From Candidatus Omnitrophota bacterium (GTDB taxonomy: Bacteria; Omnitrophota; Gorgyraeia; Zapsychrales; JAKLDJ01): a DNA stretch of 64,000 bases. This document shows, one piece after another, positions 9,552 to 50,100 of this stretch. The position numbers and the translations under genes are program-made. Within the stretch, counting starts at the first letter, position 1, and each line of letters opens with the position of its first letter. The notes beneath the pieces were generated by a model, which searched no databases, was not told where the DNA came from, and was given only the letters and a program-made list of their open reading frames with translations. The stretch lies in NCBI GenBank assembly GCA_022703585.1, contig JAKLDJ010000001.1:118891-182890 (forward strand), in the 5' to 3' direction.

Positions 9552-9645
9552 AAATCATTGCCCATCCTTGATCAAGAATCTGGCAATCAATCCTGTCAAT
9601 AACCTTTCGCGCGGCACCTGTTGATTTCCAACACAGCAAAACCGT

Positions 9646-10816: not shown

Positions 10817-10818
10817 CT

Positions 10819-23299: not shown

Positions 23300-23341
23300 T
23301 TAATCAAAAAAATCAATTACGGCAAATATTACGCCGCGTCT

Positions 23342-29408: not shown

Positions 29409-29447
29409 AGGCTTTCGTTCTGTTTATCCCTGGAGCTTAAGGAAAAC

Positions 29448-30417: not shown

Positions 30418-30450
30418 AAACCCTGTTTCTCGTCGAGAAACAGGGTTTTT
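30418..30450. terminator. bidirectional rho-independent terminator between convergent genes
   Basis: 14-bp perfect stem AAACCCTGTTTCTC/GAGAAACAGGGTTT with a 3-nt loop, flanked by A-run and T-run, so a U-tract follows the hairpin on both strands. Confidence 0.65.
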
Positions 30451-31314: not shown

Positions 31315-31396
31315 ATGTTTTTAATCCTATGCGATTGACTTTGAGAGTTCTTTGCGTTCGCTGGGTTCGTTGAGTTCGTTGTGTTTCTTACTCAGC

Positions 31397-31445
31397 CAAC
31401 TCTATAACTCTATAAACCCTATAAACCCAATAAACCCAACAAACT
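31397..31445. repeat. short tandem repeat array (~9-nt unit AACYCTATA / AAACCCAAY) in the spacer between the two ABC permease genes
   Basis: aactctat aactctat aaaccctat aaacccaat aaacccaac aaactcact, preceded by gggttcgttgagttcgttg. Confidence 0.5.
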
Positions 31446-31448
31446 CAC

Positions 31449-32456
31449 TCAGGCTTGCTTTAACCTGTCCGAAATAAACTTAAACCCTAAAGAAACAGCA
31501 ATTAAAATGATACCAAAAGCGACACCCTGCGCGCAGGCATAACCAAAATAGTGATCCAGCATCGAATCCAGGATCTCTGTTACCGGAACAGAAGTGTAGT
31601 CCACAAAACCGCTTCTGCCAGTCATCGAAATAATAAGGATAAACGACTGCATGGAACCTAAGATCGTCAGTATAACAACGACGAGGGTGACCGGTATCAT
31701 CGCGGGAAGAGTAACATTCTTTAGTATCTTCCAGCTCCCGGCCCCATCAACTTTCGCCGCTTCATAAAGCTGCCGATCGATTGTCTGCAGTCCGGCCAAG
31801 AACATCAAAAATCCCCATCCAAAACCTTTCCAGGAGTGCACGATGGATATGCACGGCAAGGCCGTCCGGGGGTCGGACAACCAGTTATTGACCAAATGGG
31901 GAAAACCTGTTTTTACCAGTACGTAATTTAAAAGCCCGATAGGTTCACCGCTTTGCATTCCGGCATTTAGAATCCACGTCCACACTAAACCAACCACCAC
32001 TTCCGATAAAACAGGCGGTATAAAAAAAACGACAATATAAAAATTCTTCATTCTTAGCTCGCGGTCACACAAAAGAGCGAGTGTAAAAGCCAGGGCATTC
32101 TGAAAGGTTAATGCCACGAGGGTAATAAATCCTGCGTTCATCAGAGAGCCCCACCATTGCCTATCCTGGAAAAGGTCGATAAAGTTCTGAAAACCTACAA
32201 AATCTTCCTTGAACTTAATAACATCAATCCCATTCCATTCAAGAACGGAAAGTCGAAATATATCGATAAAAGGATATACGTAGAAAGTGCAGAAGATAAC
32301 AACAGCGGGCAAAATAAACAAAAAGCTCGTGAGATGCGCCCCCATGAAGTCCTTCGACTTTGGCTCAGAATGGTGAGCGAAAGTCGAACCATTTTTCTTA
32401 CCCGGGTTCACCCGCCGCAATTCCGTGGGACGAGTCGAAGGGCCTGTCTCTACCAT
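31449..32456 (-). CDS. carbohydrate ABC transporter permease (MalF-like)
   Basis: EAA motif (YEAAKVDGAGSWKILKNVTLP) and six TM helices. The ORF-track start at 32522 overlaps the upstream binding-protein gene by 65 nt; the start was moved to the in-frame ATG at 32456 (MVETGP...) immediately after the SBP stop. A later ATG at 32345 is also possible. Confidence 0.8.
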   Translation of the reverse strand: MVETGPSTRPTELRRVNPGKKNGSTFAHHSEPKSKDFMGAHLTSFLFILPAVVIFCTFYVYPFIDIFRLSVLEWNGIDVIKFKEDFVGFQNFIDLFQDRQWWGSLMNAGFITLVALTFQNALAFTLALLCDRELRMKNFYIVVFFIPPVLSEVVVGLVWTWILNAGMQSGEPIGLLNYVLVKTGFPHLVNNWLSDPRTALPCISIVHSWKGFGWGFLMFLAGLQTIDRQLYEAAKVDGAGSWKILKNVTLPAMIPVTLVVVILTILGSMQSFILIISMTGRSGFVDYTSVPVTEILDSMLDHYFGYACAQGVAFGIILIAVSLGFKFISDRLKQA

Positions 32457-32457
32457 G

Positions 32458-33834
32458 TTAATTCTTTCGCCTGCTTTCTCTTTCCAAAACTTTTTCTTTC
32501 GCGGCTTGAACTTCTTGCGCAACTTCTTGGGGTGTTTTTTCTCCGATAATAATCGACTGAATTCCTTTAGTAAATCTTTCGCTCACCTTAGGATGCTCAT
32601 TGACTCGCCATGCCGTCGGATGAGTCCCGTAGTCTGCGCCTTTGGCAAAGCCTGACAAAATAGGATCAACGGCTGAAAGTGCCTTTTTATTGGCGGGGAG
32701 ATTTTTTGTTTCTGCCGCAAAGACAGCTTGTTGTTCTCGGGCTGTCAGCCATTTTAAAAAATCAATTGATTTTTGCTTATTCATAGATCCGCCATTAACC
32801 ACAAACGACGAACCCGTGTACCAGATGGCCATAGGAAAATTTTTGCTCACGGCCGGGGGCAGCATAACGCCGTATTCGAGATTCGGATTCATATCCTTAT
32901 AAACATTAACACACCAAGAACCGTTAAAGGCAAAGGCGGCGCGCTCTAAGGCAAAATCCTGCTCGGCATATTTGTTGCCTTTGATAACGATGCCCTTAAC
33001 AAACGCGTCGTGATCGGCCAATATTTTAAAAAGATTAAACACTGTTATCCAGTCAGCATCGGTATACTTTACCTTGCCGCGGTAGGTCGCCATGACCTTT
33101 TCTTCGCCCATTACATTAAACGCATAATTCGAGGCAAAGCAATCGATCAGCCATGCCTCGCCCCAGCCGGACACAAAGCCGGCAAGGCCGACGCGCTTTA
33201 AGGCTTCGATGTCTTCGATAAGTTCCTGGAATGTCTCCGGGGGATTGGTAATGCCGGCCTGTTTGAGGAGTTTTTTGTTATAAAGCATCTGGATGGTGGT
33301 CACATCGATAGGGACCCCGTAAATACCGGGCCTGATCTTATAGATGTTGCTTTCTTCAAATTGATTAACCGCCAGGGCCTTGGGGAAAAAGCTCGATTCC
33401 CACTCGGAATTATTAAGCCGAAAATCATTTGTCAGATCCGCGACAAAACCGTTTTCGATAAACGAGGCAAAGACTTTCTTTTCGCCCAATACGCCGAAAA
33501 TATCCGGCAGGACCTTGGCCTGGGCAGCGGCAATAACCTTCTGCGAGTAGGCGTCCGACGGAGCATAGAGTTCAAAATTGACTTTGATGCCCGTTTCCCG
33601 CTCGTATTTTTGGGCGAGCTCAACCAGCGCGTCGTGCCGGTCAGTCATCCAGTGCCAGACGGTAATCGTATCGGTATTTTTGTTTTTTCCGAATGTGCAG
33701 CCCGTAATATTTAAAGCAGAAATAACGGCAAGAATGGATAGAACAAAAACGCAGGAGAAAGGTTTTCTCATCCGCCCTTTTCCTTTGTGCGGTGGGTTTC
33801 CCTTAGAGATTTTGCCCCGCCTCCGGCGGGGCAA
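32458..33834 (-). CDS. extracellular solute-binding protein of a sugar ABC transporter
   Basis: 458 aa with a lipoprotein-type signal (ALNITGCTFG), then a family-1 SBP fold. Confidence 0.8.
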   Translation of the reverse strand: MPRRRRGKISKGNPPHKGKGRMRKPFSCVFVLSILAVISALNITGCTFGKNKNTDTITVWHWMTDRHDALVELAQKYERETGIKVNFELYAPSDAYSQKVIAAAQAKVLPDIFGVLGEKKVFASFIENGFVADLTNDFRLNNSEWESSFFPKALAVNQFEESNIYKIRPGIYGVPIDVTTIQMLYNKKLLKQAGITNPPETFQELIEDIEALKRVGLAGFVSGWGEAWLIDCFASNYAFNVMGEEKVMATYRGKVKYTDADWITVFNLFKILADHDAFVKGIVIKGNKYAEQDFALERAAFAFNGSWCVNVYKDMNPNLEYGVMLPPAVSKNFPMAIWYTGSSFVVNGGSMNKQKSIDFLKWLTAREQQAVFAAETKNLPANKKALSAVDPILSGFAKGADYGTHPTAWRVNEHPKVSERFTKGIQSIIIGEKTPQEVAQEVQAAKEKVLERESRRKN

Positions 33835-33881
33835 AATCTCTAAGGTTCATAGACAAAATATTTGTATCGAATGCTCCTTAC

Positions 33882-36800
33882 TTACCGCTGGCCTCCATCC
33901 GGAACCATCATGATATTGATATTCGGTTTCCGGTTGTGCACAATAACGCCATCGGCTACATAAGTATGATAAGGATTAACCTCGAAATTGTAAATATTAA
34001 CTTTATTATTTACAACTTCGATAGTTTGGATGGCAACGTCTTCGCCTTGAGTGTTCGTCAGGGTATCACCGACTTTTAATTTCCCTATCTCTGTCCAGGC
34101 TCCTTTGCTTAAAACCCGGTGGATAGGTGTCACCTTCATATGACCGTTCACGATCAAGAAAGTGTCCTCTTGGTCATGCTTAAAGACCTCCGTGACCTTG
34201 TCCGGCTTCATCTGCTTTGTCTCTTCGTCGAAGGCCAAGACCACATCACCGACGCTGATATTCTCAATCGGCTTTTGCGTCCCGTCTGCCATCGTGATCG
34301 GCGTCCCGGCCAAGAAACAGCCAGGCGCGCTGGTAATGGTCAGGGTGGCGTCGTCGAAGTAGGCCTGCGCAGGAAGCGGGTAACTTACCGCGTCATAAAA
34401 GAGATTGGCTCTAATTGTCGCAGTGGCAGCTGTACTAGGAATTGTTATATTGCTAACCGATAACAGCGTCCAAGGAGTATTTCCTCCTATCGTGTTAGAA
34501 GAATGGGTGCCGATTTCAGCGCCACTGGAATTCTTAAATATGACCAAAAGCTGGGCGCTGGCTGTTGCCAGCGGGTCAATAATCGTTCTACCGTAAATTG
34601 TAGCGGTTAACTTCCTTCCCGGCGTAACGTTAACCGTTTGTTCGACTGCTCCGTTATGATCCTGAAGAGATACCGGGAATTCAAAGAGCGCGGCATAACT
34701 CCCGCTATGAGAAAGCGTCGTGACTTCAGCCGGTTGAAAAGGCATGTCCCAATCGCTTAACCCATTTTCAAAACCGGAATTAAGCAAAGTTGTTTGCGCC
34801 GGAGGAGAAATATAGTCATAGGAATAAACGAAATTATCGAAGTTGCCTATCCCTCCTACTGCTTGGCTATCTCCCTGAGAAGCGAAAACAAACCCGCTGA
34901 CTCTCACCTTGGTTGCGCCGGCAGGAATAGTCCCGGAAACATAAAGTTGCCGCCAACCATTATCCGCGGTTATTTGATCCGCATCAATGACATACGCGTC
35001 CCCTTGATTATCAATATACTCAAGCTGTATTCCAGCCGCCGCACTTGAAAAAACGCTTATGTCCGATTTAAGATAAGCGGTTAGATAAACATTTTGTGCC
35101 GCAGGAAATGGGCTTCCTTGCGCATTGTAATAGATATCCTGATAAATCGTGCTGTAATAATTTTGGGTAGTAGTTGAACCGATAGTCTTCTTAGCAGAAT
35201 AAGGAGAACTGTGCGGATTAACAGAATCTAATTCGCTGGGCGCTCCGTAAAGGTCAGTCCAACCACCAAGACCGCTACCGTCGTCAAAATTAGGGTTAAC
35301 GAGGCTTGTCCTAAAATTAGGTGGCGGTAATTGATCAAAAGAAGCAAAAACATCGTCGAAATATATATTCCCGCCATAAAGCGATGCGGCATGCGGGCAG
35401 GAAACAAAAGGACTCACCCTGGCCTTAGCCGATGAAGACGGGGCAACTGCCGTTACAAAAAGATACGTCCAGCCTGTTATCCCGCCGATTGTATTTGATT
35501 GCACCGGGCTACCGATAGGCGTACCATCTGCCTCAAAAAATTCCAGCTGCAAGCCAGCCGTTGCGCTGGATCGTGGATCTATAACAGTTTTGGCCCATTC
35601 AGTTGCCCACAATTGCTGTCCGGGAGTCACGGTAAATTCCTGGTAAATCCTCGACCAAAAATCCGCAGATCCGCCTGGAACTTGAATAATTGATTTGGCG
35701 GATTTGGTCCCAGTCCGATGCTCTTCAGTAACTGCCGCCATCGGATACCCGGTTGCATCTTGCGTCCATCCAGCCATGTCACTTTCAAAACTAGGATTGA
35801 GGATTAAATCGCTGGGCGGAGTGTTTGAAAAAGCCATGTCATCAACAAAAACATTGCCATTGATTGTCCCTTGATTCCTTTGCGCCCAAGCATAAGCACT
35901 TATTCTAACCGTGGCTGTGCCCGTTGGTGCTATGTTGTAAACATAAAGTAAAGACCAGTCGGTTTGACCTCCTATATCTGCTTGCTGAGCTGAACCAATC
36001 GGCTGCCCGGAACCATCTAAGAACTGAATCTTCACTCCGCCCCTAGCAATTTTCGAAGGATCAATATTTGTTTTTACCCATCCGGTAACATAAGCAGTAT
36101 TTCCTACGGTAAAGGGGATATCTTGCTGGTAAAGCTCAGTATAATAGTCGTTACTACCAGCCGTATCTCCTATTGTATGGTTTGCAGAATAAATTCCGGA
36201 ATGATGAGTCGTACTGGCTATCCACGGCCGGTAGAGAAAAGTCCAATCATTAACACCATTTTCAAAATCGGCATTAATCAAATCCGACGGAGGAAGTAAC
36301 GGTGGAATAGCCGTGTATGAAACTGCAAAATCATCAATATAGAAGTTACCACCTACTGCTGCCGTATCATTTTGCCCAGCCCAAAGAAATCCGCCAACTC
36401 TTATTTTTGTTGTAGTTGCCGGGGCAATCCCTGAAACATACAGCTGACGCCAATCCGTCATTCCTCCGATCTCCGACTTGATATCATACTGGCTGCCTAA
36501 ATAAGTGTTTCCGTTGTAAAACTGAATAAGCAATCCACCCTTCGCGCTTGCTAATGGATTTATGGCTGTCTTACCCCAAGCTGTGGCATAAATTGCCTGA
36601 CCTGCGCTTAAGGGCACTTCTTGATAAACTTGACCCCAATAATCCGAAGTAACACCATTGACATTATCCCGGGCACTATAAACTCCGGTATGAGCATAAG
36701 TAGTCGAAGCGCTGAATTGAGAATTACCGGCCCAACCGCTTAACTGTGATTCAAAACCAGGATTCGTTATTAAGCCGCCACCGGGGGCTTGAATTCTATC

Positions 36801-37340
36801 AATAAACATATTGTCAACGGCTACTTTGCCTCCAATAGCAGATGAATCGTCTTTGGCGGCATAAGCAAACGCACCTGCTCTCACTTTTGCTGTTCCGGTC
36901 GGAGCAGTGCCGGTTACATAAATTTCAGTCCAATCATTAACCCCGCCGACGGGCGTAGTTATCGTCCCAACGACAACATCTGAAGAATTGAGAAATTCTA
37001 CCATGATACCACCGCGAGCGGATGAACCCTCAGCCATTTGGGTTTTAATCTGCGCGGTCATGTAAATCGGATCGCCGGCCGCGACAGGAGTAATTACTTG
37101 ATAAATCTCGGCAAAATAATCCCTGTCAGCTACGGTGGTTATCGTATTTTCCGCGGCATAATTCGGGCTATGCACTATGGCATAGAAAGGATAGCCGACC
37201 GTTGACCAATTATTCACCCCGTTCTCAAAGCCCGGATCCGTAAAAAGATTCGTCGCCCAAGCTTGTGTGCCTACAGACAAAAACAGCCCTACAATTAGGG
37301 CTCCGATGGTTAATGCTCGTTTCATAACTCTGCCTCCCAT
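33882..37340 (-). CDS. secreted protein with six CBM4/9-like carbohydrate-binding repeats and a C-terminal bacterial intein-like (Hint/BIL) domain
   Basis: 1152 aa with a signal peptide. Six ~150-aa repeats each start with a NPGFE/DFENG...W motif. The C-terminal ~140 aa carry Hint blocks: CFLAGTPITMADG (N-terminal nucleophile Cys) ... VGDVVLAFDEE ... NIYNFEVNPYHTYVADGVIVHN (terminal His-Asn), followed by only 16 residues. Confidence 0.8.
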   Translation of the reverse strand: MGGRVMKRALTIGALIVGLFLSVGTQAWATNLFTDPGFENGVNNWSTVGYPFYAIVHSPNYAAENTITTVADRDYFAEIYQVITPVAAGDPIYMTAQIKTQMAEGSSARGGIMVEFLNSSDVVVGTITTPVGGVNDWTEIYVTGTAPTGTAKVRAGAFAYAAKDDSSAIGGKVAVDNMFIDRIQAPGGGLITNPGFESQLSGWAGNSQFSASTTYAHTGVYSARDNVNGVTSDYWGQVYQEVPLSAGQAIYATAWGKTAINPLASAKGGLLIQFYNGNTYLGSQYDIKSEIGGMTDWRQLYVSGIAPATTTKIRVGGFLWAGQNDTAAVGGNFYIDDFAVSYTAIPPLLPPSDLINADFENGVNDWTFLYRPWIASTTHHSGIYSANHTIGDTAGSNDYYTELYQQDIPFTVGNTAYVTGWVKTNIDPSKIARGGVKIQFLDGSGQPIGSAQQADIGGQTDWSLLYVYNIAPTGTATVRISAYAWAQRNQGTINGNVFVDDMAFSNTPPSDLILNPSFESDMAGWTQDATGYPMAAVTEEHRTGTKSAKSIIQVPGGSADFWSRIYQEFTVTPGQQLWATEWAKTVIDPRSSATAGLQLEFFEADGTPIGSPVQSNTIGGITGWTYLFVTAVAPSSSAKARVSPFVSCPHAASLYGGNIYFDDVFASFDQLPPPNFRTSLVNPNFDDGSGLGGWTDLYGAPSELDSVNPHSSPYSAKKTIGSTTTQNYYSTIYQDIYYNAQGSPFPAAQNVYLTAYLKSDISVFSSAAAGIQLEYIDNQGDAYVIDADQITADNGWRQLYVSGTIPAGATKVRVSGFVFASQGDSQAVGGIGNFDNFVYSYDYISPPAQTTLLNSGFENGLSDWDMPFQPAEVTTLSHSGSYAALFEFPVSLQDHNGAVEQTVNVTPGRKLTATIYGRTIIDPLATASAQLLVIFKNSSGAEIGTHSSNTIGGNTPWTLLSVSNITIPSTAATATIRANLFYDAVSYPLPAQAYFDDATLTITSAPGCFLAGTPITMADGTQKPIENISVGDVVLAFDEETKQMKPDKVTEVFKHDQEDTFLIVNGHMKVTPIHRVLSKGAWTEIGKLKVGDTLTNTQGEDVAIQTIEVVNNKVNIYNFEVNPYHTYVADGVIVHNRKPNINIMMVPDGGQR

Positions 37341-37470
37341 GGCTTTCGTTCCTGCGCCACGACGGTACGTCGGGGCGCGGAAACGCTTTCTTGTTAAATT
37401 TTAAAAAATGGCGTACATTCCAAGCGAAACTCCGGCGTGTACACCATCTTCGCTTCTCTTCTGCGACTAA

Positions 37471-37499
37471 AATATAACATATACTTATAGCATTGTCAA
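37471..37499 (-). promoter_or_regulatory. sigma70-like promoter (TTGACA-17-TATATT) for the CBM/BIL protein gene
   Basis: The minus strand reads TTGACAatgctataagtatatgtTATATT. It gives a ~125-nt leader ending in a GGGAGG SD 8 nt before the ATG at 37340. Confidence 0.5.
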
Positions 37500-37531
37500 A
37501 ATTATTAGCGACGGGTGGCAGGGGTGGTATT

Positions 37532-37563
37532 GCCCGGCGTCCCGCGAAAGCGGGACGCCGGGC
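37532..37563 (-). terminator. perfect 14-bp GC-rich hairpin with GAAA tetraloop immediately downstream of the GH94 gene
   Basis: GCCCGGCGTCCCGC gaaa GCGGGACGCCGGGC, located 11 nt after the GH94 stop. There is no clean U-tract, so it may be a terminator or an RNA-stability element. Confidence 0.5.
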
Positions 37564-37573
37564 AAAGGGGTAT

Positions 37574-40000
37574 TTAGCCCAAAACGGCTTTAATTTTATG
37601 AGTTTTTCCGTCCGCGAAAGGAGTAACGAGGTTGCCTTCTATTTTTTGACCATCAACAAAAAGTTCCTTAACCCCGCGCTCAACACCCTTGGGATTAAGA
37701 ATCTCGATTTCGTAAATATCGTTTCTAAACGGCCTTTTGATAAAACATTTTTTCCACTTTTTAGGGATACACGGATCAATCCGCAAGCCTTCAAAATCGC
37801 GCCGGGCACCCAGGACCCATTCGGTCGCGGCCATAAAGGTCCAACCGGCGGTTCCGGTAATCCAGGTAAAGGCCCCTTCGCCGTAACGGTAAGGATTTTC
37901 GGGCCCGACTAAATATTCGGCATAAACATAAGGCTCGGTCTTGTAAAGGTCCATATCCTTTTGCGCGTTGGGCATGATTTTTCGCATGGCCTCATAGGCC
38001 TTGTCCCCGCGGCCGGCCAGGCAGTAGGCCACCGCCATGAATGTCGCCGCGTGGCAAAAGGCGGCGGCGTTCTCCTTCGTGCCTTCAGAGAACATGCTGA
38101 TACGCCCCAAACGTTTGACCCAGGAAGAATAGGCAGGGTAAAACAAGGTAATGCCGTGCGGGCCGTTTAGATATTTGTCAACGGAATCAAGGACATGGTT
38201 GAGTCTCTCGTCTCGTGCCACTCCTCCTAAAACCGCCCAAGCCTGGGAATTGATATAAATCCGGCGCCCTTCTTTGTCGTTCTTGCTTCCGTAAACCACG
38301 TCGTCATCGTCAAAGCCGCGGACATACCATGACCCGTCCCAGCAAAGCGAATTAACCCGCTCGTCCATGGTCTTGGCCATTTGCAGGTAATTGTTTTTCT
38401 TGTTTTCATCGCCGGTTAAAGCGCACAAGTCCGCCAGCATCTTTAAAGACCGCACCAAAGCCTGCGCCAGCCAGACGCTCTGGCCTTTATGTTTTATCCC
38501 GGCTGAATCAATGGCATCGTTCCAGTCGGCATGGCCGATTTTTGGCAGCCCTTTGTCGCCGACATCATTAAAACAAAAGTTTAAATTTTTCTCCAGGTGT
38601 TCTAACAGCGTCCCTTCGCCATCCACTTGAGCGCTATTTTTCCAGTTAGGATCAATTTCCCAGCCACCCAGCCATTGGTCCTTGAGGTAGGGCACGTATT
38701 CCGAAAGAATGCTTTTATCACCGGTTTCCTTTATATAGGCGCTAACGGTTGAAGTCAGCCAGATCTGGTGGTCTTTGTTGGGCCGGTGCTTGTTGGGCCC
38801 GACTGTGTCCGACCAACCCGGGGCCGAGGTGCCGTCCCTGCGGATGAGCGAAGCAAGCTTTAAAATCTTTTTGCGGGTCAGCTGCGGATTAATCGAAACT
38901 ACCCCTTCCGAGTCCTGACAGGAATCGCGGTAACCGCGCCCGCCCGAGCCCTCATGATAAAAACTTGGGGATCGTGACCAGAAATTACAAATGTACATCT
39001 GGTATTTGACCCAGACATTCATCATGGTGTTAAAATCCTTGTCCGGGGTTTCGACAACAATGTTTTTAACAATGCGTTCCCGCCAGATTTTCTTGGTATT
39101 TTCGAGTTCCTTCTTGGCCGCGGCGACCTTTCGGTACTTGGCAAGAATTTTAGTGATGGCCGGGATGCCGGTGGTTTGGCCCAAGATAACGGTAAATTCT
39201 TTTGTCTGGTGAGGCGCAAGAGTTATATTATTCTTAAAAGCACCGATGGCATCTTCGCCGGAGCAAAGCGGAAAGTTTTTGAATTTCCCTTCAAGGACAG
39301 CCTCGGGATTTTCTTCAGTGTTATAACGGCCTAAGAATGCGTCTTTTTGAGTGCAGCAGCCCGACACAGATAACGATGTCGCAAAGAATCCTAAGGTGTC
39401 AAAGGGCTGAATATTCATCCCCTGCCACTGGGCGGTCTTTTTGGCAAACACAGCCTTGTGGGATTTATCGAACCAGATGCGATTATAAAGATTCATGATG
39501 TTGCGGTAGCGCAACTCCTCATGATAATCGCCCATTAAAAATTCTACATAAGGATAAATTTCAAGCTTGCGGGTTTTGGTCGTTTTATTGGTGAGCTTGA
39601 CCAGCCAGACTTCGCAATCATCGTGCTCGGGGACAAAATAGGTAATTTCGGATTGGATTCCGCTATTAACCGACTCAATAACCGTGTAGCCAAGCCCGTG
39701 GCGGCACGCATAGGATTGCGGTTTCACACGCAAAGGCTGAAAGGTTGCCGACCAAGCTTTATTGGTTTTTGCGTCGCGGATAAGAATGTATTTGCCCGGG
39801 CGGTCAAAATGCCAATTCTCCGGCGACCAGCGGGTAATACGGTTGGTGCGGCAGTCTTTGTAAAAACTGTATCCCCCCGCGGTCTGAGAAACAATCGAGC
39901 AATAGGTTTCGTTGGTTAGATAATTAATCCAAGGGCGAGGAGTCACGGGATTGGTAATGACGTATTCCAATCCGTCGGGAGAAAAGTGGCCGTAATTCAT
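37574..40000 (-). CDS. glycoside hydrolase family 94-like glycan phosphorylase (cellobiose/cellodextrin/chitobiose phosphorylase family)
   Basis: 808 aa. The N-terminus (MNYGHFSPDGLEYVITNPVTPRPWINYLTNE) and the central (alpha/alpha)6 barrel are collinear with GH94 phosphorylases. Confidence 0.8.
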   Translation of the reverse strand: MNYGHFSPDGLEYVITNPVTPRPWINYLTNETYCSIVSQTAGGYSFYKDCRTNRITRWSPENWHFDRPGKYILIRDAKTNKAWSATFQPLRVKPQSYACRHGLGYTVIESVNSGIQSEITYFVPEHDDCEVWLVKLTNKTTKTRKLEIYPYVEFLMGDYHEELRYRNIMNLYNRIWFDKSHKAVFAKKTAQWQGMNIQPFDTLGFFATSLSVSGCCTQKDAFLGRYNTEENPEAVLEGKFKNFPLCSGEDAIGAFKNNITLAPHQTKEFTVILGQTTGIPAITKILAKYRKVAAAKKELENTKKIWRERIVKNIVVETPDKDFNTMMNVWVKYQMYICNFWSRSPSFYHEGSGGRGYRDSCQDSEGVVSINPQLTRKKILKLASLIRRDGTSAPGWSDTVGPNKHRPNKDHQIWLTSTVSAYIKETGDKSILSEYVPYLKDQWLGGWEIDPNWKNSAQVDGEGTLLEHLEKNLNFCFNDVGDKGLPKIGHADWNDAIDSAGIKHKGQSVWLAQALVRSLKMLADLCALTGDENKKNNYLQMAKTMDERVNSLCWDGSWYVRGFDDDDVVYGSKNDKEGRRIYINSQAWAVLGGVARDERLNHVLDSVDKYLNGPHGITLFYPAYSSWVKRLGRISMFSEGTKENAAAFCHAATFMAVAYCLAGRGDKAYEAMRKIMPNAQKDMDLYKTEPYVYAEYLVGPENPYRYGEGAFTWITGTAGWTFMAATEWVLGARRDFEGLRIDPCIPKKWKKCFIKRPFRNDIYEIEILNPKGVERGVKELFVDGQKIEGNLVTPFADGKTHKIKAVLG

Positions 40001-40152
40001 TGAAGGACCTCAAAATTGATCGGGCTGTTATTGTTGAGTTGGTAATTTTTAGAGGCGCGGCAAAACGCGGCTAAAAAATTATAGAAAACTCTACCATGGG
40101 GCAAATTTGCGGTCAAGGAAAAATTACGGGAAATTATAAAGGATAAACGGTT

Positions 40153-40186
40153 GGGGGCTTGGCGGCCATCCGGCCGCCAAGCCCCC
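40153..40186 (-). terminator. perfect 15-bp hairpin (GGGGGCTTGGCGGCC atcc GGCCGCCAAGCCCCC), likely the terminator of the giant-gene/PilZ transcription unit
   Basis: An exact inverted repeat 36 nt after the stop of the second PilZ gene, with A/T-rich flanks on both sides. Translating it is also what creates the two mirror-image 'MGAWRP' ORFs in the track. Confidence 0.6.
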
Positions 40187-40221
40187 ATGAAATTTTCCCA
40201 ACAAAAACAGTTTAACCTAAC

Positions 40222-40551
40222 CTACTGGCAAAACTTAAAAATCCTCTGGGTGTCCATAAAATCAACTTTGTCAAACTTCATGCCCACATCCCATGTTTGC
40301 GGGTTGGCGGGCCGGCTCCAAGCCACACGTCCGCTTAAATTCAGCGGTTCATGACCGTCGGGAAGCTCCACCAGCAAATCAATCTTGTCGTTTAAGAGAA
40401 ATCTCTCCTTAGTGGAGACTTTCGCGCCTGTCGCGGAGACATCTCTTAAGAAAACATTGGTACCGAAATCTGCCCGTTCGTCTTTAAACTTGACCGGGAA
40501 CCTAGCCATGAAACGATCGAAGACACGGCGATCATCAATGCCGATAACCAT
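40222..40551 (-). CDS. PilZ domain protein (c-di-GMP receptor)
   Basis: 109 aa with the RxxxR motif (RRVFDRF) and DxSxxG motif (DVSATGAKV). Confidence 0.75.
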   Translation of the reverse strand: MVIGIDDRRVFDRFMARFPVKFKDERADFGTNVFLRDVSATGAKVSTKERFLLNDKIDLLVELPDGHEPLNLSGRVAWSRPANPQTWDVGMKFDKVDFMDTQRIFKFCQ

Positions 40552-40661
40552 AGGGTTACCCTTTTCTCCGTGGCTGTTCTACTGCCCTTGGGGCAGGTAT
40601 GGCTTTCTCCCGTGGCTTGCTGTCTTCTCTTTACCCTGATAAAAATAAGGGGTAATATTCC

Positions 40662-41036
40662 TTAAAAGGCTTTTTCAATTGCGGAGCACGAACCGCTGGC
40701 GACATCGGCAAACGTCATCCCCACCCGGTAAAAATCCGAACTGGGCAGCTGGCGGACCCATCGCACTTTTCCGACGGCTAAGATCGGCTCGCTGTCGGGT
40801 GTTAACGCCAATTCTATCGGCATCTTGGTATTGACCGGAATAAATTTGGTCGATAAAAATCCCACCCCGCCGCGACTGATGTCTAAAGTCAGACTGCTAT
40901 CGAAAGCGTTACCTTTCTTGCACACAACCGGGACCCGGCAGTCGAACCGGGTCGATTTTCTTTTGTCAGAATCTTGCACTTTGTTCCTCCAATTGAAGTA
41001 TAGCACCATTTTTTCCGAAGAAAGCGTTTTTTTCAA
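40662..41036 (-). CDS. PilZ domain protein (c-di-GMP receptor)
   Basis: 124 aa with RxxxR (KRKSTRF) and DxSxxG (DISRGGVGF). Confidence 0.75.
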   Translation of the reverse strand: MKKTLSSEKMVLYFNWRNKVQDSDKRKSTRFDCRVPVVCKKGNAFDSSLTLDISRGGVGFLSTKFIPVNTKMPIELALTPDSEPILAVGKVRWVRQLPSSDFYRVGMTFADVASGSCSAIEKAF

Positions 41037-41146
41037 CTTTTTTTACAAGGCCTTCTGAAATACGTTCTGAAAACACTTTCTTTTACCCCTTAAACGAGCC
41101 AATTCTGCCAAGAAATAAGTTTCTCTCCGGTATCCGCGGACTCATG

Positions 41147-44100
41147 TTACCCGCATTCCGCCTCTTGCGGAGAAAGTTCCGAATCCGGATTTTCCTTATC
41201 CGGTAATCCCTCCTCTTGAAACAAAACCCCGGCCTTGACCAACGCCCGGCGAAGAGGCTTAAACTTCTCGGTTGAAATAACTTCCTCAAAACGCGCGTTC
41301 AAAACTTGGTCACCCCTGATCATATCCATAACAACCCGCGCTCCGTCGGGAACGATCAAAACACAATCCAATACCACTTTAAGCGCGTCTTCTTGCCGGC
41401 TGCCCTGGCCGCATAACATCGCTCTGGCATGCCGCGGTAAAGCATTCCATTGGCGAATCAATTGATTCAATAGCTGCGACCCTGCGTCAGTATCGCGGAA
41501 ATTGTCGATGGCCTCACCCAGCAAAAGATGATTAAGAAATACCCTCGCGATTGATAAAGTTTTCTCAATAGGCATAAAGGAAATTAATATGACAAGCTCC
41601 TTTAATGCCCTGGGCTTATTGTGCGCAGGCTCTCCTTTTGAATAATAAATCCATAAGTATTGCGCAAATAATATCTGGTATTCGCGGGTCGCCGGCGAAG
41701 AGCTCCTGGCATCAAGAAGCAATGCTTTTCCGGTCCGCTGCTCGATGGCCGTAATTCGTTCCTGCGAATCGGTATGATGGCCAAAACTGCGCCGGGATAT
41801 AGACCTTCCTTCACGCAAACGTTCTTTCAGCCGCTCGACAATAGAATCTTCATCGCTGGATTCATCCTGGCGGGGAAGCAACCGGATTTTTTCTTTTCTT
41901 TCGATATCCATAGCGTGCTTATACAGGGCGTCGTCGGGAAATGGCCCGTTTTGAAGGCCCTGCGGATAATTCGCTTCTCGCCCCAGGGCTTCTTTTCTCA
42001 CGGCCAGCTGATAAATAACCGAATCCCTGTCGGGATAAAGATCAAGGCGGCCGGCCAGAAGCGTAAACCTAAGCTGGCGCCCAAGCGTGTAAATTCTCGC
42101 CGCTAAATTCACTCCCGCCGAACCTTCGTTTTTCATGGCGGCGTTGGTATTGCGCAATCCTTTTTCAAGGCGTTGACGGAGTTCTTCTTTGGTGCGGACT
42201 AACGAACGGCGGCGGCAACCGGGGACAACAAAATCCGACAATCGCTCGATATCCCGCCGCACGTTGTAGAGCCTGCCGTAACCGTCCAGTAATTTGCTTA
42301 AGATAATCCATTCTAAGGGGCCGAGCTTATAGTATTCAACGATTTCATCCAAACAGCATAGCTTCTGACCCACCGGTAAATTCCACCATTCCTTGGTCCT
42401 TAAACGGCAATCCAATCGCGCCAAGGCCTTTTGAATCGGCGCCCGCAGGGCCGTGCCTTCATCCAGCGCTTCATCTATATCGCCGGCGTCTCTTATTCTA
42501 AAGAATGCCATCCTTCGGGAAAATTGCAGGCGCAAGAGTTCGTCTTTGGGATTCTCCTCTACCATTTCGGCCAAGGCGACATCACTGTCGTCAAAGGGAT
42601 CTGCATATAATTTTGTTTCGGGGCCAAATGCCTGGTCCATACCATTCAGGGTTGCCTTGATGGCTACCTCAGTGATGGATATGGCCTGCTTACTGATACC
42701 CCAGAGATTACCGACACGTTCCTGACTCCAGGGTTGCCCGTCTTTTGTGCCTATGCCATGGCGCAGACCAACGATCAATCTCCTCCGAGGATCTTCTAAA
42801 GAGGCGATATGCCGGCGGGCAAGTTTGATTTTTCCGTTGACCTCTTGTTCCCTGTCCAATCTTTCTTCCGCATCCTCAAAGGTACGCTGAGGGATACATT
42901 CTCCTTCTTCCCGGTCATCATTCGAACCGCGCTTAGCGTCTAAAGAAACGACGGCTGTTTCCTTTTCCGCCTTACTTTTTCCGTTGTAATGTATTTTATT
43001 TCGATATTGAGAGATCTCACCTTTCATCCACCATTCCCAATAAGTCAAAAGTCCGTTTTCGAAACTTAAGTCAAATTTGCCTAATGCCCCGAGAAGGGCC
43101 AGGCGCCCGATAGCCTTCATCTCAACCCTGGAGATGCCTGCCCGCAGCAAGTCGGACCCATGCCGATTAAACATCTCCCCCACAAATCCTATATTATTTT
43201 TAACAATATAATCGCATATACGCCCCCGAAGGTTATTGTCTCCCAGCTGAAAAGCCCAAATGAGAATCCGCTCCTCGCTGCGGGAAAGATAGCAGCCCGG
43301 CTTAACCGGCCGGGCCATGATGCGCCTGGCCCTGGCGATGGCCTCGTCTTTGGGGCTTCCCTTGACCATCCCCACCATCACAATCGGCAAAAACATCAGC
43401 GGCCCGGCCTCGACGAAGGCCATGAAAATGGCCGAGGCGGGCCCGAGGGCAGAGGGAACAAAACATCCTAAATTCTGATCCTTCAGCTGGGCTTCCTGAT
43501 CTTTAGGCCGCTGCACCATCATGAAGGAGTACTCTCTCGAAATAAATATTCCCGGCCAGGTGGCGGCTTTTTTCATCTCCCCAAGCTCAAAACCGTTCAT
43601 TGCCAAAACGTTCAATGGAAAATCAATTTCGTCCCCTAAGAGAAAACCTTGCTTCCCAAATGATTGAGCAATCTTATTAGCCATCTTTCCAAAAACGCAA
43701 TCAGGCGCGATAGCAGAAAAAAAGTTCACAGAGTAACCCATGGAAATAATAAATCCTCTAACAATATTTTCGGGTATTTGCGAATCTTCGAACCCGAAGG
43801 GAATTAGTTGAAGATTATCTTTATTTCCGGGGCTCTTGGCTTCAAGGGTCGAAAACGCGGCGTCCATAATTTCTTTGCAGTAATACGACAAGGCTTGGGG
43901 TGAAAAAACCGGGTCAAAGGCGATCACACGCACCCCACGGCTGGCCAGTTCTATCTCGACAAAAAGATTGTCACCAGAACCGATTGACATGACCATATCG
44001 CCCTCCCTGATGGGAAGCTGGTCAACGATAGCCTTCGCGGTCGCAAAAAACGGTCCGTTGAGATCTTTGAGCGCCGCTAAAACCTCTCTCTTTCTTTCCG

Positions 44101-47100
44101 CAATACCTCGCTGCTGGGGCGAATAGGAAAAAATGTCACCTTCGAAGAAAGACCCCCGTCCCCGCATCATCCCCGCCACCGGCAACAACATCAGCGGCCC
44201 GAGGGCGAAGGGCAGCAGGAAGCCGTAGAGATCGTCTTCATCATCGTCATTCGATGAGGCCTCGGAATCAGTTGCCTCTGCCTCTTGCACATCTTCTCCG
44301 TGTTTTTTAACATCATCCCAATAAATTCTCTGCTCCATATTTCCCTTGCGTAACTTAAAATTATGAAACGTCTGCGCATTAATCAATCGGGCCTCTTGGT
44401 AACTGACAGCAATCGCCGAATCAGAACCCTTTTCTTGGATAACCGCGCTGGGGAAAAGCGCGCGCACATAAGAAATAAAATCTTGGTTATCCTGATCCTT
44501 ATTGACGAATACGGCTATTCTTGCCTTCTCAATCTTAAAATCTTTTAATTTCTCAACAACGCCGTCAAAATCCTGCCTTTCCTGGCCCGCCCTGATCCTT
44601 TGGATAACCAGATCTTGCGCATAATCTTCTTCCTCCCACTCGCCGCGCACGGCAACGACGATATCGCTTCCTAAATTCTCCGAAAGGATAATACTGTTAT
44701 CGCGAAAACTTGTACCGATTCTTAATAGAATATTGCTTCCTACATAATAAAGAGTTTTGCCCTTCCATTCTGACGTCCAGCCATCATCGATAGAATACCC
44801 GGCACCTGGAGCGACCACATTAACTCGGGAATATCTTCCTTTCTTCTCCTCAATTTTATGTTTTTTAACCGACTTTGAGCCGCCTTGATTCACAGCCCCA
44901 AAGAAAGCAACAACAAAATCAAGAAAATCTGCCAATCGTAAGGCCCGTATGGCATCGGATTTTCTTTTCTTTAATCCTGACCGTTCTGAAGAATATATCT
45001 GAACGAGTCTTTCTGTTTCTTCAACTGCATGTTTTTGAAACTCCAAGGCACGTACTTCTTCGCGAAGCCTTTCCCTTGTTGATCCGAGCTCTTCCTTTCT
45101 TCTCTCGCGTTCTTCATCGTCGGGATCATTACTGTTTACCCCGTTCCGTAAGCGACGAAACTCCTCATCCGCTTCTTCTATCTGTTGCATTTTTATCGCG
45201 ATCTTTCTTTCATATTCTTTTAATTGCTTTCTAAGAAAAGAGGGGCTGGAAGCAATCCTCAATCTATGCCTGATCGTTTCCATGCGTTTTGCGGTCGCTT
45301 CATGCTCCTTTTCTTTTCCCTTGGGAACATTGTAGCGGTACTTTTCATATTGCTTATCTAATGCAGTATAAAGGTCGCTTAATCTCTTAAGAAGGGTAAC
45401 ATTTCTCGAATCATATTCATCCGCCCACCGGATAACATCTTCGCTCTCAAAATCGGCGATGATACAGAAGTCCGGATCGCCCACGAAACCACTCATTCTC
45501 GTAATCCGCGCATGCATTTTCTTAAAGATGACCGGGATCGCGATCGTAACCGCCCGCTGGAGTTGCGCGCGAGTGAGCCGTCTAAATTCTTTGCGTACCT
45601 CCTGAACTTTTTCCGCGAAACCGTCTCGATCTTCATCACCCCTTAAATGCTGTTCATCCGTTAATAGAACAATGGCCTTCAGCATGTCAGTTTCTTGCTC
45701 AGAAAATTTCATGTTAGGCAATATTTTATTCCCAGAACGCCATCTTATCTGGCCGGAAAGACTGGGGATTATCGAGCAGATCGAAGCGAAGAAAAGCAGA
45801 TACCCGTCTTCTTCCTTAACCCGCCCATGTTTAATATCTTCCGTGAATCTAAAGACCGTTGTCATGGCTAAATCCAACTTTGAGAAAACATTAACGCGCC
45901 GATGAAAAAATGAATCAGACTCTTCTCTGTGCAGGGGGCTGAGTTCGTGAATCACAAAAGACAATAAACCACACCCTTTAAGGATATCGACCGCTTCCAC
46001 CAACCGTATCTTTGAATCCTTTTTCGTCCCACCCTTAACAAGCCGCTTAAAGAATTTGAGAAATTCATCGCTTCGGGCCACCCGGGCTTTTGTTCTGGTG
46101 GATAGACGATGGACGTAGGTCATGGCCTCGATATAATCCTCATCTTCCCTGAATCTTCTTTCAAGCATATTCACCACTTCCGAGGCTTCGCAATCCATGA
46201 CCCTGGCGTGTCTATCGCAGGGAAAATTGAACCGGTAACTGTATTCATTTCTCAATATCTGTAGCGTCCGATTTTCTCTTAATCTTTTTTTGATCTCTTC
46301 TAAACCAAGACTATTGCGCTCATTCACAAAGTCAATAAGCGGGGTATAAACATAATTGTAATAGCCCTCTAATAACCCGGCCGCGCCGGTTTGATAATGC
46401 AAGGTTTGCAGGGCCACTTCGATTTCCAAAATTAACCGGATCATTTCCGGCGTGCCGGCGCTATCCAATGATTCAATCTCGTCCGCAGCCGCCAGAATAG
46501 CACGTTTGGCCTCGTACTCGATTCTTTGAACATACATTAATTCTTTAACGATGGCAGTCACCGTCTTGGTATTTAAGAAAACGCGTCTTTTATAGGCATA
46601 GGAAGGAATCGGCTCTTCAAAGGCAAGCGCAAGAGAAACATGGATATCTTTTTTTGTTGCCGTCGGGGATAATTGATAATCAATCTCTTGAATAACGGTC
46701 CGTCCTTGAGCAACCTGGTTGACACCATTACGGTCCCGGTCAGCCGCTTCGCCGCCCCGCCAGCCATAATGCATAATGGCGGTCGTCACCGCGCGTGTCG
46801 TATAGCGGGCATCGGAATGGTCGTTTTCACGAGTCCCGCGGTATCCGGTATCAAGAACGGAAAAGCGCGGGACAATAAACCCGTTAGAAAGAATGGATAA
46901 ATGGGGGGCGATTATTTCATCCTCGCCGTGAAGGGCTAAATTCATGTCATCCAGTATCGCTTCTAGTTTTTCCTGCGATATTTCCAGATCAAATTCTTCG
47001 AGGTATTCTTTTAATTCACCAACCAAAAGAGGCTCCGTCAATTCTTCCATGTGCAGCCCCTCAAGCTTCTCCGACAAAGGAACAAGCCGGTGCCCGGTGA

Positions 47101-50100
47101 CCCTTTTTTCAAAAAGCTTTACCATATCCGAATAACTGCTTAAGATACGGTTAAAGTGATGGTCGAGAAATGCCCTCGCCAGCGCCTCGGCATTAAGGAT
47201 TAATCTTCCTTCCCCGACCAATTCTTTCATGAACGACCGATCAGTCAACAATACCCTGATAGCCCGCATATCCCCCTGATTGGCTTTACGTATTACAAAA
47301 CCCCTGTATTGCCTTAAATCTTTTATCGCATCGCTAACCTGAGAAGGAATTCTGTAATAGAAATTATCCAGTGCCTTGGAATGCATCTTGAGGGCAACAA
47401 CAAATAATTCTTCCCGCTCTTTTCTGTCCCGCGACTCTTCGGCCAATTCTGCCATCAAATCGCCCAAGACCCGTAACGTTTTCCCGTAACTTTCGTAATC
47501 GATCCAGTCGTCATTGGTCTTAAACCATAACCCCTGCTCATCCGACTCAGGGCTTTCTCCGTGCAAAGAACAAAAAGCAAATAATACATTCTTTAATGCC
47601 TTATCCGTCGTAGCCACTTCTATCATCTTGGCCAGGCGCAGCGCATAGAATCTTCTCACTTCTTTATTTTGGATCCCCGCGAATCTTTCTTTATCGTGTC
47701 CGTTATCCAAACATCCTTCTTCATCCAGGGAAGAAAGCTTCTTGTATAAATCCACATCCACTGTTAGCCATAGATAGGTCGCCATATGCGCCATAGCGGC
47801 TTTTATCAGGTCGTCATCGCGGCCCGGTCTTTCCCCTTCCTTACAATCACCTGCCTCTTTCTTTGCGGCTAAACGCTCAATGTGTGCCGTAAGGGGTGTC
47901 GTAATTCTCCGGCGGATAAATTCGATCAATTCCAGATTGCCCTGCATAATTTCGCGCTTTAAAAGAGCTTCTAAATCATGCTCATATTCTGTCCGAAATA
48001 CGCCGTATTCGGTAATGGGATTGTCCAGTCCCTGGCTTAAAAATGCCAGCGCCTTCTTGCCTCCGATTAAAACCATGATTCCCCTTAAGCCACTTTTATA
48101 ACCATAAACCCCCTCGCCCTCGCCTGGCTTTTCGTCCAGATCTTCGTCTCTATTCTCGTCCAGTTTTTCGTCCAGATCTTCATCCTGCCCTTCGTTTTCT
48201 TCTCCGATTTCGCCTTTCTGCTTTGAAGGATCTGACTTTTTATTTTTTGCTTCTGCCTTTGCGGCCATGCGACGCTGTTTCAAAATTTCTTCGGCATTTT
48301 CATGCAACTCAACCAATCGCTCAAAATCATCTTCTGTTAATAAATGACCCAGCGCGGCTTCTATGTTCTTCGTACTATCCCCGCGATTTATCCAGTTTCT
48401 GGTCAGCTGTTTTGAAAGAAGCATGGAAAAAAGAATATCAATCAATTGCCCCCTGTTTTGCCTGGCCAATACGTCCAGAAGAGTAAAATGCGCTTCTTCA
48501 ATATGATAGAATTTATTCGAATCCAGCATATACTCAAGTACCGTCAAAAGCTCTTCATCAGTCATCGATTGCCCGATTTTAAGGGAGAACTGAAGTAATT
48601 TGTAATTCCATTCTTTCTTTAAATGGCCTGCTTTTTCTTCCGGGTACATACAAGAATGATGCCAATCAAGCCATCTTGAGAAATGATTTAGCACCGCCCG
48701 TTCCGGGAATTCTTTTGCGTAGGCAAAAAGGACGTACATTGCCGGTCGGCTCCAGTAATCCAGCCACAGACTCCGGCTCCATGTTTCGCGCGCGTCAATA
48801 AATTCATTTAAAACTTCAATCAAAATACCGTACGCCTGTTCAATATCGCTCTTTGTCCCCGAGGCCAGGACATAGGCCTTGCGTAATTTCGCCACCCTTT
48901 CCGGGAATTCTTCTTTTACCCTGCTCGAACCGGTTCTGTCCTTGCCGGGATAAAAACCCTTATTAATTCTTTCATCCATCTTGACGGTTATGGGATGCCG
49001 CGCGCCTAAAATTCTTTTTAAGGTAAAATATTTAGGCAAAATGCTTCCGGCGCTATCGCTATCATGAAATGGTATAATCAGATCTTCTACGCTTTCTAAC
49101 TCAAAGGTCCGGCCGTCTTCTTCATAATAACGCCCCGCCATATCAAACAGCTGGTTGGCGATCAATTTGCTCATCAGGCGCAGGGCATCTTTGGGATCAA
49201 ATTCTTTTATCTGAGGCGGGACAATCACCAACCCGTCGCTGCCCCCGGGCATAATGAATAAACCGCTTTCATCCGCCAGGGCAATGACAATACTGCCGCA
49301 TTTCTTTTCTCTTTCCCTAAGCCCCCGGTAAAATACCCCTTGATGATCAATATTCAAACAGTCATTACTTCCGCCTTGAATCGCATACTCGATATCGCTT
49401 TGTTTCATTTTAAAAAATTCAAAAATCCTCTCGTCGACATACACGTATATATTTCCCAGCTCCTTGATAACCTCATGATCATCATCTTTTTTATTGAGCT
49501 TTATTTTCCTCGCCCTTTTTAATGCCTCTTCTTTAATCTTTCTTCTATCCATAATACCGTCGCGCATGACATAGCCGGAGGTTGATTCAATAAGCGGAAC
49601 CGGTTTCTCGCGGTCATCGTCTGAAAGCACCGCGGTAATAAATTGAAGCAGGCCGCTTTGCTCAAACCGTGAAAACGATTCTTCAGTATAAAAATACACA
49701 TAATATCCGTCCCGGCCGATACGCTCAAAGTCATAACCCTGCCCTTGCGCCAAAATCTGATGAATATCCCTCGGCCCCCTTAATTCACAGACCCTGACAG
49801 CTTTCTGGTTATAGTCAAAGGCATCTTTCAACGCATAGGCGAGCTCGTCGGGGTGAGCAAATGATTGATTAAACCGTTTACCTTCCACGTAGATCTTGGC
49901 AGCATGAACAAGCCTGCGCCAACTCCATTCGTTTAAGGTGTCTAAACAGTTGGAACCTTCCAGGTCGCAAATCTTAAATTTTTCTCTCACTTCGCTTAAC
50001 GGCCTGATGCGCCTGCCTGTAGTGTTGTACCCGTAGAAATAAATAAGCGCCATCGCCTTATACAAGCTTCCGGGTGTTTTCACCTGCCAGCCCGATTCGT

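Follow-up and report, generated by a model that had tools for sequence, protein, structure and literature searches.

A conserved pair of stand-alone PilZ genes at the probable head of a glycan-uptake cluster in Omnitrophota

A stretch of 64,000 nucleotides (nt) of a Candidatus Omnitrophota bacterium (assembly GCA_022703585.1, contig JAKLDJ010000001.1, positions 118,891 to 182,890 of the forward strand; hereafter the window) was analyzed with a focus on two adjacent genes, pilZA and pilZB. They encode small single-domain PilZ proteins, PilZ-A and PilZ-B, which are candidate receptors of cyclic di-GMP (c-di-GMP). Both lie on the minus strand, downstream of a giant open reading frame (ORF). The explanation we favor, and regard as fairly likely, is that the pair forms the conserved head of a cluster for glycan uptake and phosphorolysis, with a promoter of its own and probably under LacI control, and that its products are c-di-GMP-dependent adaptors. 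The cluster would have the order pilZA–pilZB–GH94–ATP-binding cassette (ABC) sugar importer–GH2-like glycosidase–...–LacI, with mnmE/cvpA and mnmG as its ancestral flanks. The giant gene most likely occupies a variable slot upstream, and its tie to the pair is most likely weaker than that of the sugar cluster. These views were built on direct observation of domain identity, motif conservation, synteny, operator enrichment and the presence or absence of hairpins.

Both proteins belonged to the PilZ family by domain search. PilZ-A, searched as 40662–41036, matched Pfam PilZ (PF07238) with an E-value of 1.1e-10 (42.1 bits) and PilZ-B with 7.7e-14 (52.3 bits), and both scores exceeded the gathering score of 22.5 bits. 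An earlier reading made from the sequence alone (the sequence-only reading) had assigned the RxxxR and DxSxxG motifs to both ORFs, and the translations confirmed this. Among about 50 orthologues each of PilZ-A and PilZ-B, both motifs were at least 90% conserved, and those of PilZ-B were invariant or nearly so. PilZ-A and PilZ-B shared 30% identity. A recent tandem duplication was ruled out by this low identity together with the conservation of both orthologue sets across the phylum. The two are paralogues of old standing, each a stand-alone single-domain candidate receptor of c-di-GMP, and are conserved across Omnitrophota; 45 close homologues were found for PilZ-B, those with names all being from Omnitrophota. 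With their motifs intact, both proteins would be expected to bind c-di-GMP. Stand-alone PilZ proteins are expected to act as c-di-GMP-dependent adaptors on a partner protein.

PilZ-B was modelled with AlphaFold2 from 23 orthologues (pLDDT 80.8), and the model showed a six-stranded barrel followed by a C-terminal helix. In a Foldseek search, the model matched the c-di-GMP-bound PilZ domains of VCA0042, BcsA, MotI and Alg44 at a probability of 1.00 and a template modelling (TM) score of about 0.6, and PA0012 was also among the c-di-GMP-bound PilZ matches at about 0.6. These canonical c-di-GMP-binding folds ranked above XAC1133, which scored about 0.4. By sequence, the only solved structures matched by PilZ-B were those of Xanthomonas PilZ (3dsg, 4f48, 7lkq and 3cnr; E-values of 2e-7 to 7e-7, residues 23–86), and PilZ-A matched no solved structure at E-values up to 1.

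The gene order around the pair was compared across the phylum. Scanning one genome from each GTDB species for a sequence pattern gave 49 loci, and further loci came from look-ups of individual homologues. The proteins of the window, together with cvpA and mnmE of locus L008, were mapped onto all loci (numbered with the prefix L) by tblastn, and the neighbors were then tabulated. This left 52 non-redundant loci, of which 45 had at least 1.5 kb upstream and were used for upstream counts and 44 had at least 1.5 kb downstream and were used for next-gene counts. PilZ-A was located directly upstream of PilZ-B in 50 of the 52. On the upstream side, cvpA was found on the opposite strand within 1 kb in 34/45 loci and at 2.2–5.5 kb, with genes between, in 4 more, so that 38/45 loci had a divergent cvpA and no giant gene. 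Since the upstream neighbor is divergent in most species, the pair must have its own promoter. On the downstream side, the next gene was GH94 in 34/44 loci and the gene of the solute-binding protein (SBP) in 5/44 (39/44 in total), and the SBP gene and both permease genes were present in 19 of the 24 loci with at least 8 kb downstream. The distance from PilZ-B to the next gene was 32 nt or less in 12 species, and in L058 the genes overlapped by 4 nt. These counts identify the carbohydrate cluster as the conserved partner of the pair.

The most complete example was L065, with the order mnmE, cvpA (minus), pilZA, pilZB, GH94, GH2-like, TPR, a 224-amino acid (aa) gene, a 420-aa gene, LacI and mnmG. 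This block was collinear with the window from 41036 down to 18564. In L009 and L030 the cluster ended with LacI-family orthologues (62–67% identity); L065 had a LacI-family gene at the same place. Outside the phylum, in the Margulisiibacteriota locus L057 (1372–4861), a single PilZ-B-like gene with 37% identity lay directly before the same importer of SBP and two permeases, which suggests that the link between PilZ and importer is older or was transferred.

A palindrome, GAAAGCG(C/T)TTTC(A), was common to the regions upstream of PilZ-A. A central CG and a AANCGNTT core are the classic operator shape of the LacI/GalR family. The search for GAAANCGNTTTC left its two N positions free, and sites with at most one mismatch were found within 200 nt upstream of PilZ-A in 24/48 loci, mostly at −43 to −68, against a background in the same loci of 0.017 sites per 200 nt. 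Among perfect GAAANCGNTTTC sites, 13 of the 16 in 730 kb of loci were located upstream of PilZ-A. Loci with the enriched palindrome included L008, L019, L020, L021, L029, L032, L033, L038, L039, L048, L051 and L053, and the motif stood at −43 to −68 in about 20 species other than that of the window. An alignment of 19 regions gave TTTGCT, 17–18 nt, TAAACT, about 8 nt, GAAAGCGnTTTCA, AAGG and ATG, which reads as a promoter with an operator after it. A conserved gene order that joins a phosphorylase or hydrolase, an importer and a LacI-type regulator, and whose first gene has a palindromic operator in its promoter region, is as expected of a LacI-controlled carbohydrate-utilization cluster.

As Table 1 shows, the spacer before PilZ-A in the window holds a sigma-70-like promoter match and two operator-like palindromes, AAAAACGCTTTC and GAAAGTGTTTTC. 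Only nine operator sites with at most one mismatch were present in the 64 kb, corresponding to about 0.02 expected in 167 nt. A further site, GGAAACGCTTTC, precedes a gene downstream that encodes a carbohydrate-binding module (CBM) and a HINT domain; L004 had a perfect site upstream of its CBM-like gene, equivalent to 37379–37390, and L011 had a perfect site upstream of its SBP gene. The palindrome is a candidate regulon motif for the LacI-family regulator of the cluster. Judged from these motifs, the promoter would be active and the pair would be under LacI control.

The start codon of PilZ-A is most likely GTG 40979 rather than TTG 41036. GTG 40979 is preceded by a GGAGGA Shine-Dalgarno sequence with a gap of 5 nt and agrees with the N-termini of the orthologues, and it was also picked by the gene callers on two public copies (L001 and L003), giving 105 aa. 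TTG 41036, the earlier choice, is the first triplet of the −35 hexamer of the promoter-like site. With GTG 40979 as the start, the first spacer is 167 nt long and not 110 nt. The sequence-only reading had described two spacers of 110 nt; this was correct for 40552–40661, but 41037–41146 is the spacer only if counted from TTG 41036. Its statement that no hairpin lies between the genes held, as both spacers fold no better than shuffled sequence. No convincing intrinsic terminator was found in either spacer; the two matches of the terminator scan were inside coding sequence, and their number did not exceed the chance expectation. An Rfam search of 37000–41600 with E-values up to 1 returned no known RNA family, and a c-di-GMP riboswitch or leader RNA was therefore also ruled out.

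A strong hairpin follows PilZ-B. It had been called the first strong terminator, a perfect 15-bp hairpin at 40153–40186. The hairpin is real and has 16 bp at 40152–40187, but it has no adjacent U-run, and the terminator scan did not call it; it is either terminator-like or a stabilizer of the 3' end. Perfect hairpins of 15–21 bp were also found after the GH94 gene (37530–37565), the CBM/HINT gene (33801–33845) and the second permease gene (30418–30448). They are a general gene-end feature of this genome and therefore do not prove an operon boundary. Another perfect hairpin was present at 23259–23300, and the hairpins of the window differ in sequence and have no clear U-runs. In the sugar cluster, such gene-end hairpins may serve termination or RNA stabilization. 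Across the loci, the hairpin after PilZ-B had about −40 kcal/mol in the window, L001 and L004, was weaker in L006 (−20.6) and was missing in most other species. L004 had strong hairpins after both PilZ-A and PilZ-B. With strong hairpins now standing between the sugar-cluster genes of the window, the pair there is probably a bicistronic unit of promoter/operator, pilZA, pilZB and hairpin. In this genome, transcription running on from the giant gene may reach the unit as well.

The giant ORF, whose frame is open to the edge of the window, is called as a gene of 85,803 aa on the public contigs ERZ761563, JGI 3300010429 and GCA_035453785.1, all of which carry an identical PilZ-B. It agrees with the 257,412-bp ORF (about 85,804 aa, wastewater Omnitrophota) that was reported in 2023 as the longest predicted bacterial gene (West-Roberts et al. 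2023, bioRxiv 10.1101/2023.11.21.568195), and the window almost certainly comes from the same genome. Such genes were rare at this position. A giant or long ORF on the same strand at or near the upstream position was found in just 4/45 loci, namely the window (85,803 aa), L006 (18,870 aa), L011 (at least 725 aa, cut by the contig end) and L004, where two S8 peptidase genes lie upstream of the pair and are preceded by a gene of 44,129 aa. L063, a short contig outside the 45, had a same-strand ORF of at least 335 aa, also cut by the contig end. Other large genes were present between cvpA and pilZA in L020 (4436–9151), L035 (about 4600–9650), L047 (3339–6215) and L024 (7469–9142). What lies between cvpA and pilZA varies: this slot has different large genes in different species. 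The giant genes of the window genome and L006 stand before pilZA at the equivalent place, and that of the window would also lie in this interval; cvpA was not seen in the window or L006 loci. By tblastn, the C-terminal 7,617 aa of the window ORF showed no similarity to the ends of the large upstream ORFs of L004, L006 and L011, and "giant-gene homologues" are therefore not usable as a unit of comparison.

On these grounds, we propose that the pair would be switched on together with glycan uptake from its own promoter, with a LacI-type operator overlapping or following it. A cognate oligosaccharide would relieve the repressor, so that pilZA and pilZB are expressed, and PilZ-A and PilZ-B would bind c-di-GMP through RxxxR and DxSxxG. 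The adaptors would then relay the c-di-GMP level to a partner protein, most plausibly a component of the co-regulated glycan uptake and phosphorolysis system. Several observations weigh against this proposal. The two operator-like sites before PilZ-A in the window have one mismatch each, the promoter match reaches just 9/12, and no good operator was present upstream of PilZ-A in L004, L006, L009, L011 and L030. The gene for the ATPase of the importer was not in the cluster. The window, L004 and L006 have a hairpin-bearing spacer of 195–225 nt between PilZ-B and GH94, and no hairpin lies between the giant ORF of the window and PilZ-A; in this lineage the pair could therefore be captured by the giant-gene transcript. 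Most giant genes of Omnitrophota are followed by pilZ genes (West-Roberts et al. 2023), which suggests that the adjacency is not random.

The last points bear on the possibility that the pair is an accessory of the giant gene, co-transcribed by read-through and coupling c-di-GMP, produced for instance by GGDEF modules of giant proteins or perceived via the receiver, to the giant protein's activity, its processing or its export. A functional tie of this kind had been put forward by West-Roberts et al. (2023) and in the sequence-only reading, and parts of it stood. The pair consists of real PilZ candidates on the same strand as the giant gene, the 167-nt spacer holds no terminator-like structure, the first strong hairpin comes only after PilZ-B, and the giant ORF has a receiver domain within it. 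The strand and the missing terminator permit co-transcription and do not demonstrate it. In a few relatives the upstream position is also taken by a giant gene (L006, and at one remove L004) or by long ORFs cut by contig ends (L011 and L063). Against this stand the promoter-like site and the two operator-like sites inside the spacer, the canonical hairpin and T-run terminators that stand in front of PilZ-A, after the giant or long upstream ORF, in both L006 and L011, and the divergent cvpA without a giant gene at most orthologous loci. The C-terminal 7.6k aa of the window ORF are unlike the ends of other large upstream ORFs, and a domain search of the part of the giant ORF inside the window found no GGDEF, EAL or HD-GYP domain. 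The helix-turn-helix also ascribed to the giant protein was only a sub-threshold Sigma70_r4 match (E 0.015, 15.3 bits against a cut-off of 24.1), while the receiver domain is sound. A promoter or terminator between the genes and a linkage that is not conserved had been named at the outset as evidence against the tie. This largely agrees with what we found, the promoter in the window being a predicted one; conserved linkage of the pair with a giant gene did not emerge in related genomes. Co-transcription of the pair with the giant gene may occur, judging from the sequence, but its role as a giant-gene accessory appears unlikely to us.

It is also conceivable that PilZ-B is an adaptor of a PilB/GspE-type ATPase, like Xanthomonas PilZ (XAC1133), and that the pair controls secretion or a pilus and not sugar uptake. 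This would agree with Xanthomonas PilZ being its only match by sequence among solved structures, with the label "Tfp pilus assembly protein PilZ" that JGI gives to some orthologues, and with the type II secretion-like locus near giant genes (West-Roberts et al. 2023). The Xanthomonas-type proteins, however, do not have the c-di-GMP motifs that PilZ-A and PilZ-B keep, and canonical c-di-GMP-binding folds outranked XAC1133. The window held no pilB or gspE, and the conserved block had no pilB, gspE or fimX. Such a role is very unlikely. Little probability was likewise given to the view that the pair is an all-purpose c-di-GMP effector module, functionally unconnected with both neighbors and placed where it is only by inherited gene order. 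Stand-alone PilZ proteins often act on distant targets, as DgrA and MapZ do, and in the window genome the pair is bounded by the promoter-like site and the hairpin. Yet a spacing of 5–32 nt or an overlap with GH94 in 12 species implies shared transcription, the LacI-type operator before PilZ-A in half of the 48 loci ties expression to the sugar regulon, and the link to the same ABC importer persists in another phylum (L057). The head-of-cluster explanation therefore remains our preferred one.

The pair resembles several known systems. Stand-alone PilZ proteins such as Caulobacter DgrA/DgrB and Pseudomonas MapZ/PA4608 and PA0012 also have about 100–110 aa, a barrel with a C-terminal helix and both motifs intact, and the fold of PilZ-B matches such proteins as well as PilZ domains of larger proteins. 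Those receptors have flagellar or chemotaxis targets, whereas the Omnitrophota pair stands in a phosphorylase and importer context with a LacI-type operator, and, unlike the DgrA/MapZ type, the Omnitrophota PilZ almost always occurs as a diverged A/B pair. The pilus PilZ proteins (XAC1133, XC1028 and PA2960) are small and single-domain too and gave the best sequence match to PilZ-B, covering the central barrel including LPD...G.V.W. They have no c-di-GMP motifs and no appreciable c-di-GMP binding (title of PDB 3dsg), whereas the Omnitrophota pair keeps both motifs and has no genes for a pilus or its ATPase in the conserved block; with the motifs intact, it does not belong to the type IV pilus PilZ group, which is characterized by degenerate motifs and FimX/PilB binding. 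With the PilZ domains of BcsA and Alg44, the likeness lies in the fold (4hg6, 4p00 and 4rt0) and in a genetic tie of PilZ to proteins that handle beta-glycans. Those domains are fused to a synthase or co-polymerase and control export, whereas the Omnitrophota pair is free-standing and linked to catabolic and uptake genes. Finally, LacI/GalR operators (cre-like palindrome TGAAAGCGCTTTCA) are likewise palindromes of 12–14 bp with a central CG and the same core, placed over or just after the −10, and the Omnitrophota cluster contains a LacI-family gene. The predicted sites of the window differ from them by one mismatch each, and one lies between the −35 and −10.

Table 1. Positions of the pilZ pair, its spacers and predicted control sites, and neighboring genes and domains in the window
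Feature	Coordinates	Strand	Remarks
Giant ORF, 3' end	41147..64000	minus	last 7,617 codons + stop; frame open to window edge
Response-regulator receiver domain within giant ORF	61403..61654	minus	Pfam Response_reg E 7.6e-13; aa 764-847 of window-listed ORF
Spacer, giant-gene stop to PilZ-A	40980..41146	minus	167 nt; no significant structure, fold z +0.34, best hairpin -10.6 kcal/mol
LacI-type operator-like palindrome GAAAGTGTTTTC	41069..41080		1 mismatch; -101 from PilZ-A start
Sigma-70-like promoter match TTGAAA-17-AAAAAT	41008..41036	minus	promoter scan, 9/12 matches; about 22 nt upstream of GGAGGA + GTG
LacI-type operator-like palindrome AAAAACGCTTTC	41020..41031		1 mismatch; -52 from PilZ-A start, between -35 and -10
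PilZ-A	40662..40979	minus	105 aa from GTG 40979 (124 aa from TTG 41036); RKSTR + DISRGG; Pfam PilZ
Spacer, PilZ-A to PilZ-B	40552..40661	minus	110 nt; weak 6-bp hairpin without U-run; z +0.26, -12.9 kcal/mol
PilZ-B	40222..40551	minus	109 aa; RVFDR (another R before) + DVSATG; Pfam PilZ
Perfect 16-bp GC-rich hairpin after PilZ-B	40152..40187		arms 40152-40167 / 40172-40187; host spacer z -4.7
Promoter-like site TTGACC-17-(TG)TAGAGT	40088..40116	minus	upstream of GH94
GH94 glycoside phosphorylase (cellobiose/chitobiose-phosphorylase family)	37574..40000	minus	Pfam Glyco_hydro_94 E 1.9e-109; GH94 supersandwich E 1.7e-73
LacI-type operator-like site GGAAACGCTTTC	37379..37390		39-50 nt upstream of CBM/HINT gene
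1,152-aa CBM_4_9 + C-terminal PT-HINT protein	33882..37340	minus	Pfam
ABC sugar importer: SBP + two permeases	30469..33771	minus	Pfam SBP_bac_1/8, two BPD_transp_1
TPR + GH2_C-like TIM-barrel glycosidase	25190..27553	minus	conserved cluster member
LacI-family regulator	20798..21802	minus	Pfam LacI + Peripla_BP_3; NCBIfam LacI-family matches; far end of cluster; candidate operator binder

After the hairpin, the order of genes in the window was GH94, the CBM/HINT gene, SBP and permeases, two plus-strand genes, the GH2_C-like glycosidase, a TPR protein, two proteins without a Pfam match, the LacI-family regulator and mnmG. The two plus-strand genes (27828–30389), between the permeases and the GH2-like gene, encode an MFS_2 sugar transporter and a 313-aa protein without a Pfam match. 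Relative to L006 and L065, the CBM/HINT gene is an insertion between GH94 and the SBP gene. The PT-HINT (pretoxin Hint) domain of its product has no toxin module behind it. At the other end of the window, a possible cluster for the modification of ribosomally synthesized peptides (5169–12078) was noted, with an NTP_transf_5 protein, an ABC-2 permease and ATPase, an HPr_kinase_C-like protein, a radical SAM/SPASM enzyme and a glycosyltransferase-2 fused to PqqD.

The ORF list of the window begins the giant ORF artificially at the internal ATG 63943. The giant ORF is punctuated on the minus strand by two families of repeated transmembrane-like segments. One, (L/V)GCF(L/I)PG..FLPL.G...GMV(R/K), occurs at 61754–61822, 59414–59485, 56921–56980, 51185–51250, 44165–44224 and 43412–43471, and the other, DGRLLSV(A/V)P..WA.ILGAGA..YLFL, at 55868–55927, 53993–54064 and 53315–53374. 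These repeats have an acidic or Gly/Pro-rich linker before them and basic residues after them, as if they marked module boundaries. A segment at 42503–43387 (minus strand) is weakly sigma-70-like, the sub-threshold Sigma70_r4 match being the sole indication.

Parts of the picture had been published for this very gene set. Besides the pilZ genes that follow most giant genes, West-Roberts et al. (2023) described SBPs, transporters and glycosyl hydrolases next after pilZ (their Fig. 7C) and a type II secretion-like system upstream of giant genes, and they proposed that PilZ homologs "could interact with the GGDEF ... domains", that is, c-di-GMP cross-talk. Their view of pilZ is from the side of the giant gene, and ours is from the side of the pilZ pair. 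The adjacency that the sequence-only reading had considered an unusual operonic association, and the c-di-GMP idea, were thus already known, and stand-alone PilZ receptors in a published neighborhood are in themselves nothing out of the ordinary. PilZ was not mentioned in a 2026 preprint on complete Omnitrophota genomes, and a full-text literature search for Omnitrophota and PilZ returned no other paper that was evidently relevant by title or abstract. What neither of the two Omnitrophota giant-gene papers reports is the occurrence of the pair and cluster in about 40 species without a giant gene, the divergent neighbor, the predicted promoter of its own and the LacI-type operator.

The pair adjoins the longest predicted bacterial gene, and any regulatory handle on that gene draws attention. 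The handle proposed earlier is less strong than it seems. As a module, the PilZ pair is older and far more widespread, it is tied to a probably LacI-controlled cluster for glycan uptake, and giant genes adjoin it only in some lineages. A bolder and rather doubtful extension is that the pair serves Omnitrophota feeding as a c-di-GMP checkpoint, induced by sugar and present throughout the phylum. Oligosaccharide from prey would lift LacI repression, the receptors would set the activity of importer and phosphorylase or of the secretion machinery in line with the level of c-di-GMP, and giant genes would have repeatedly settled or expanded in the slot between cvpA and pilZA, being expressed and regulated within a feeding locus. 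If this were true, the pair would offer a tractable entry to the control of giant-protein function. The analysis supplies concrete operator and promoter sequences, and it shifts attention to sugar acquisition, and its control by c-di-GMP, in bacteria that are ultra-small and probably live as predators or parasites.

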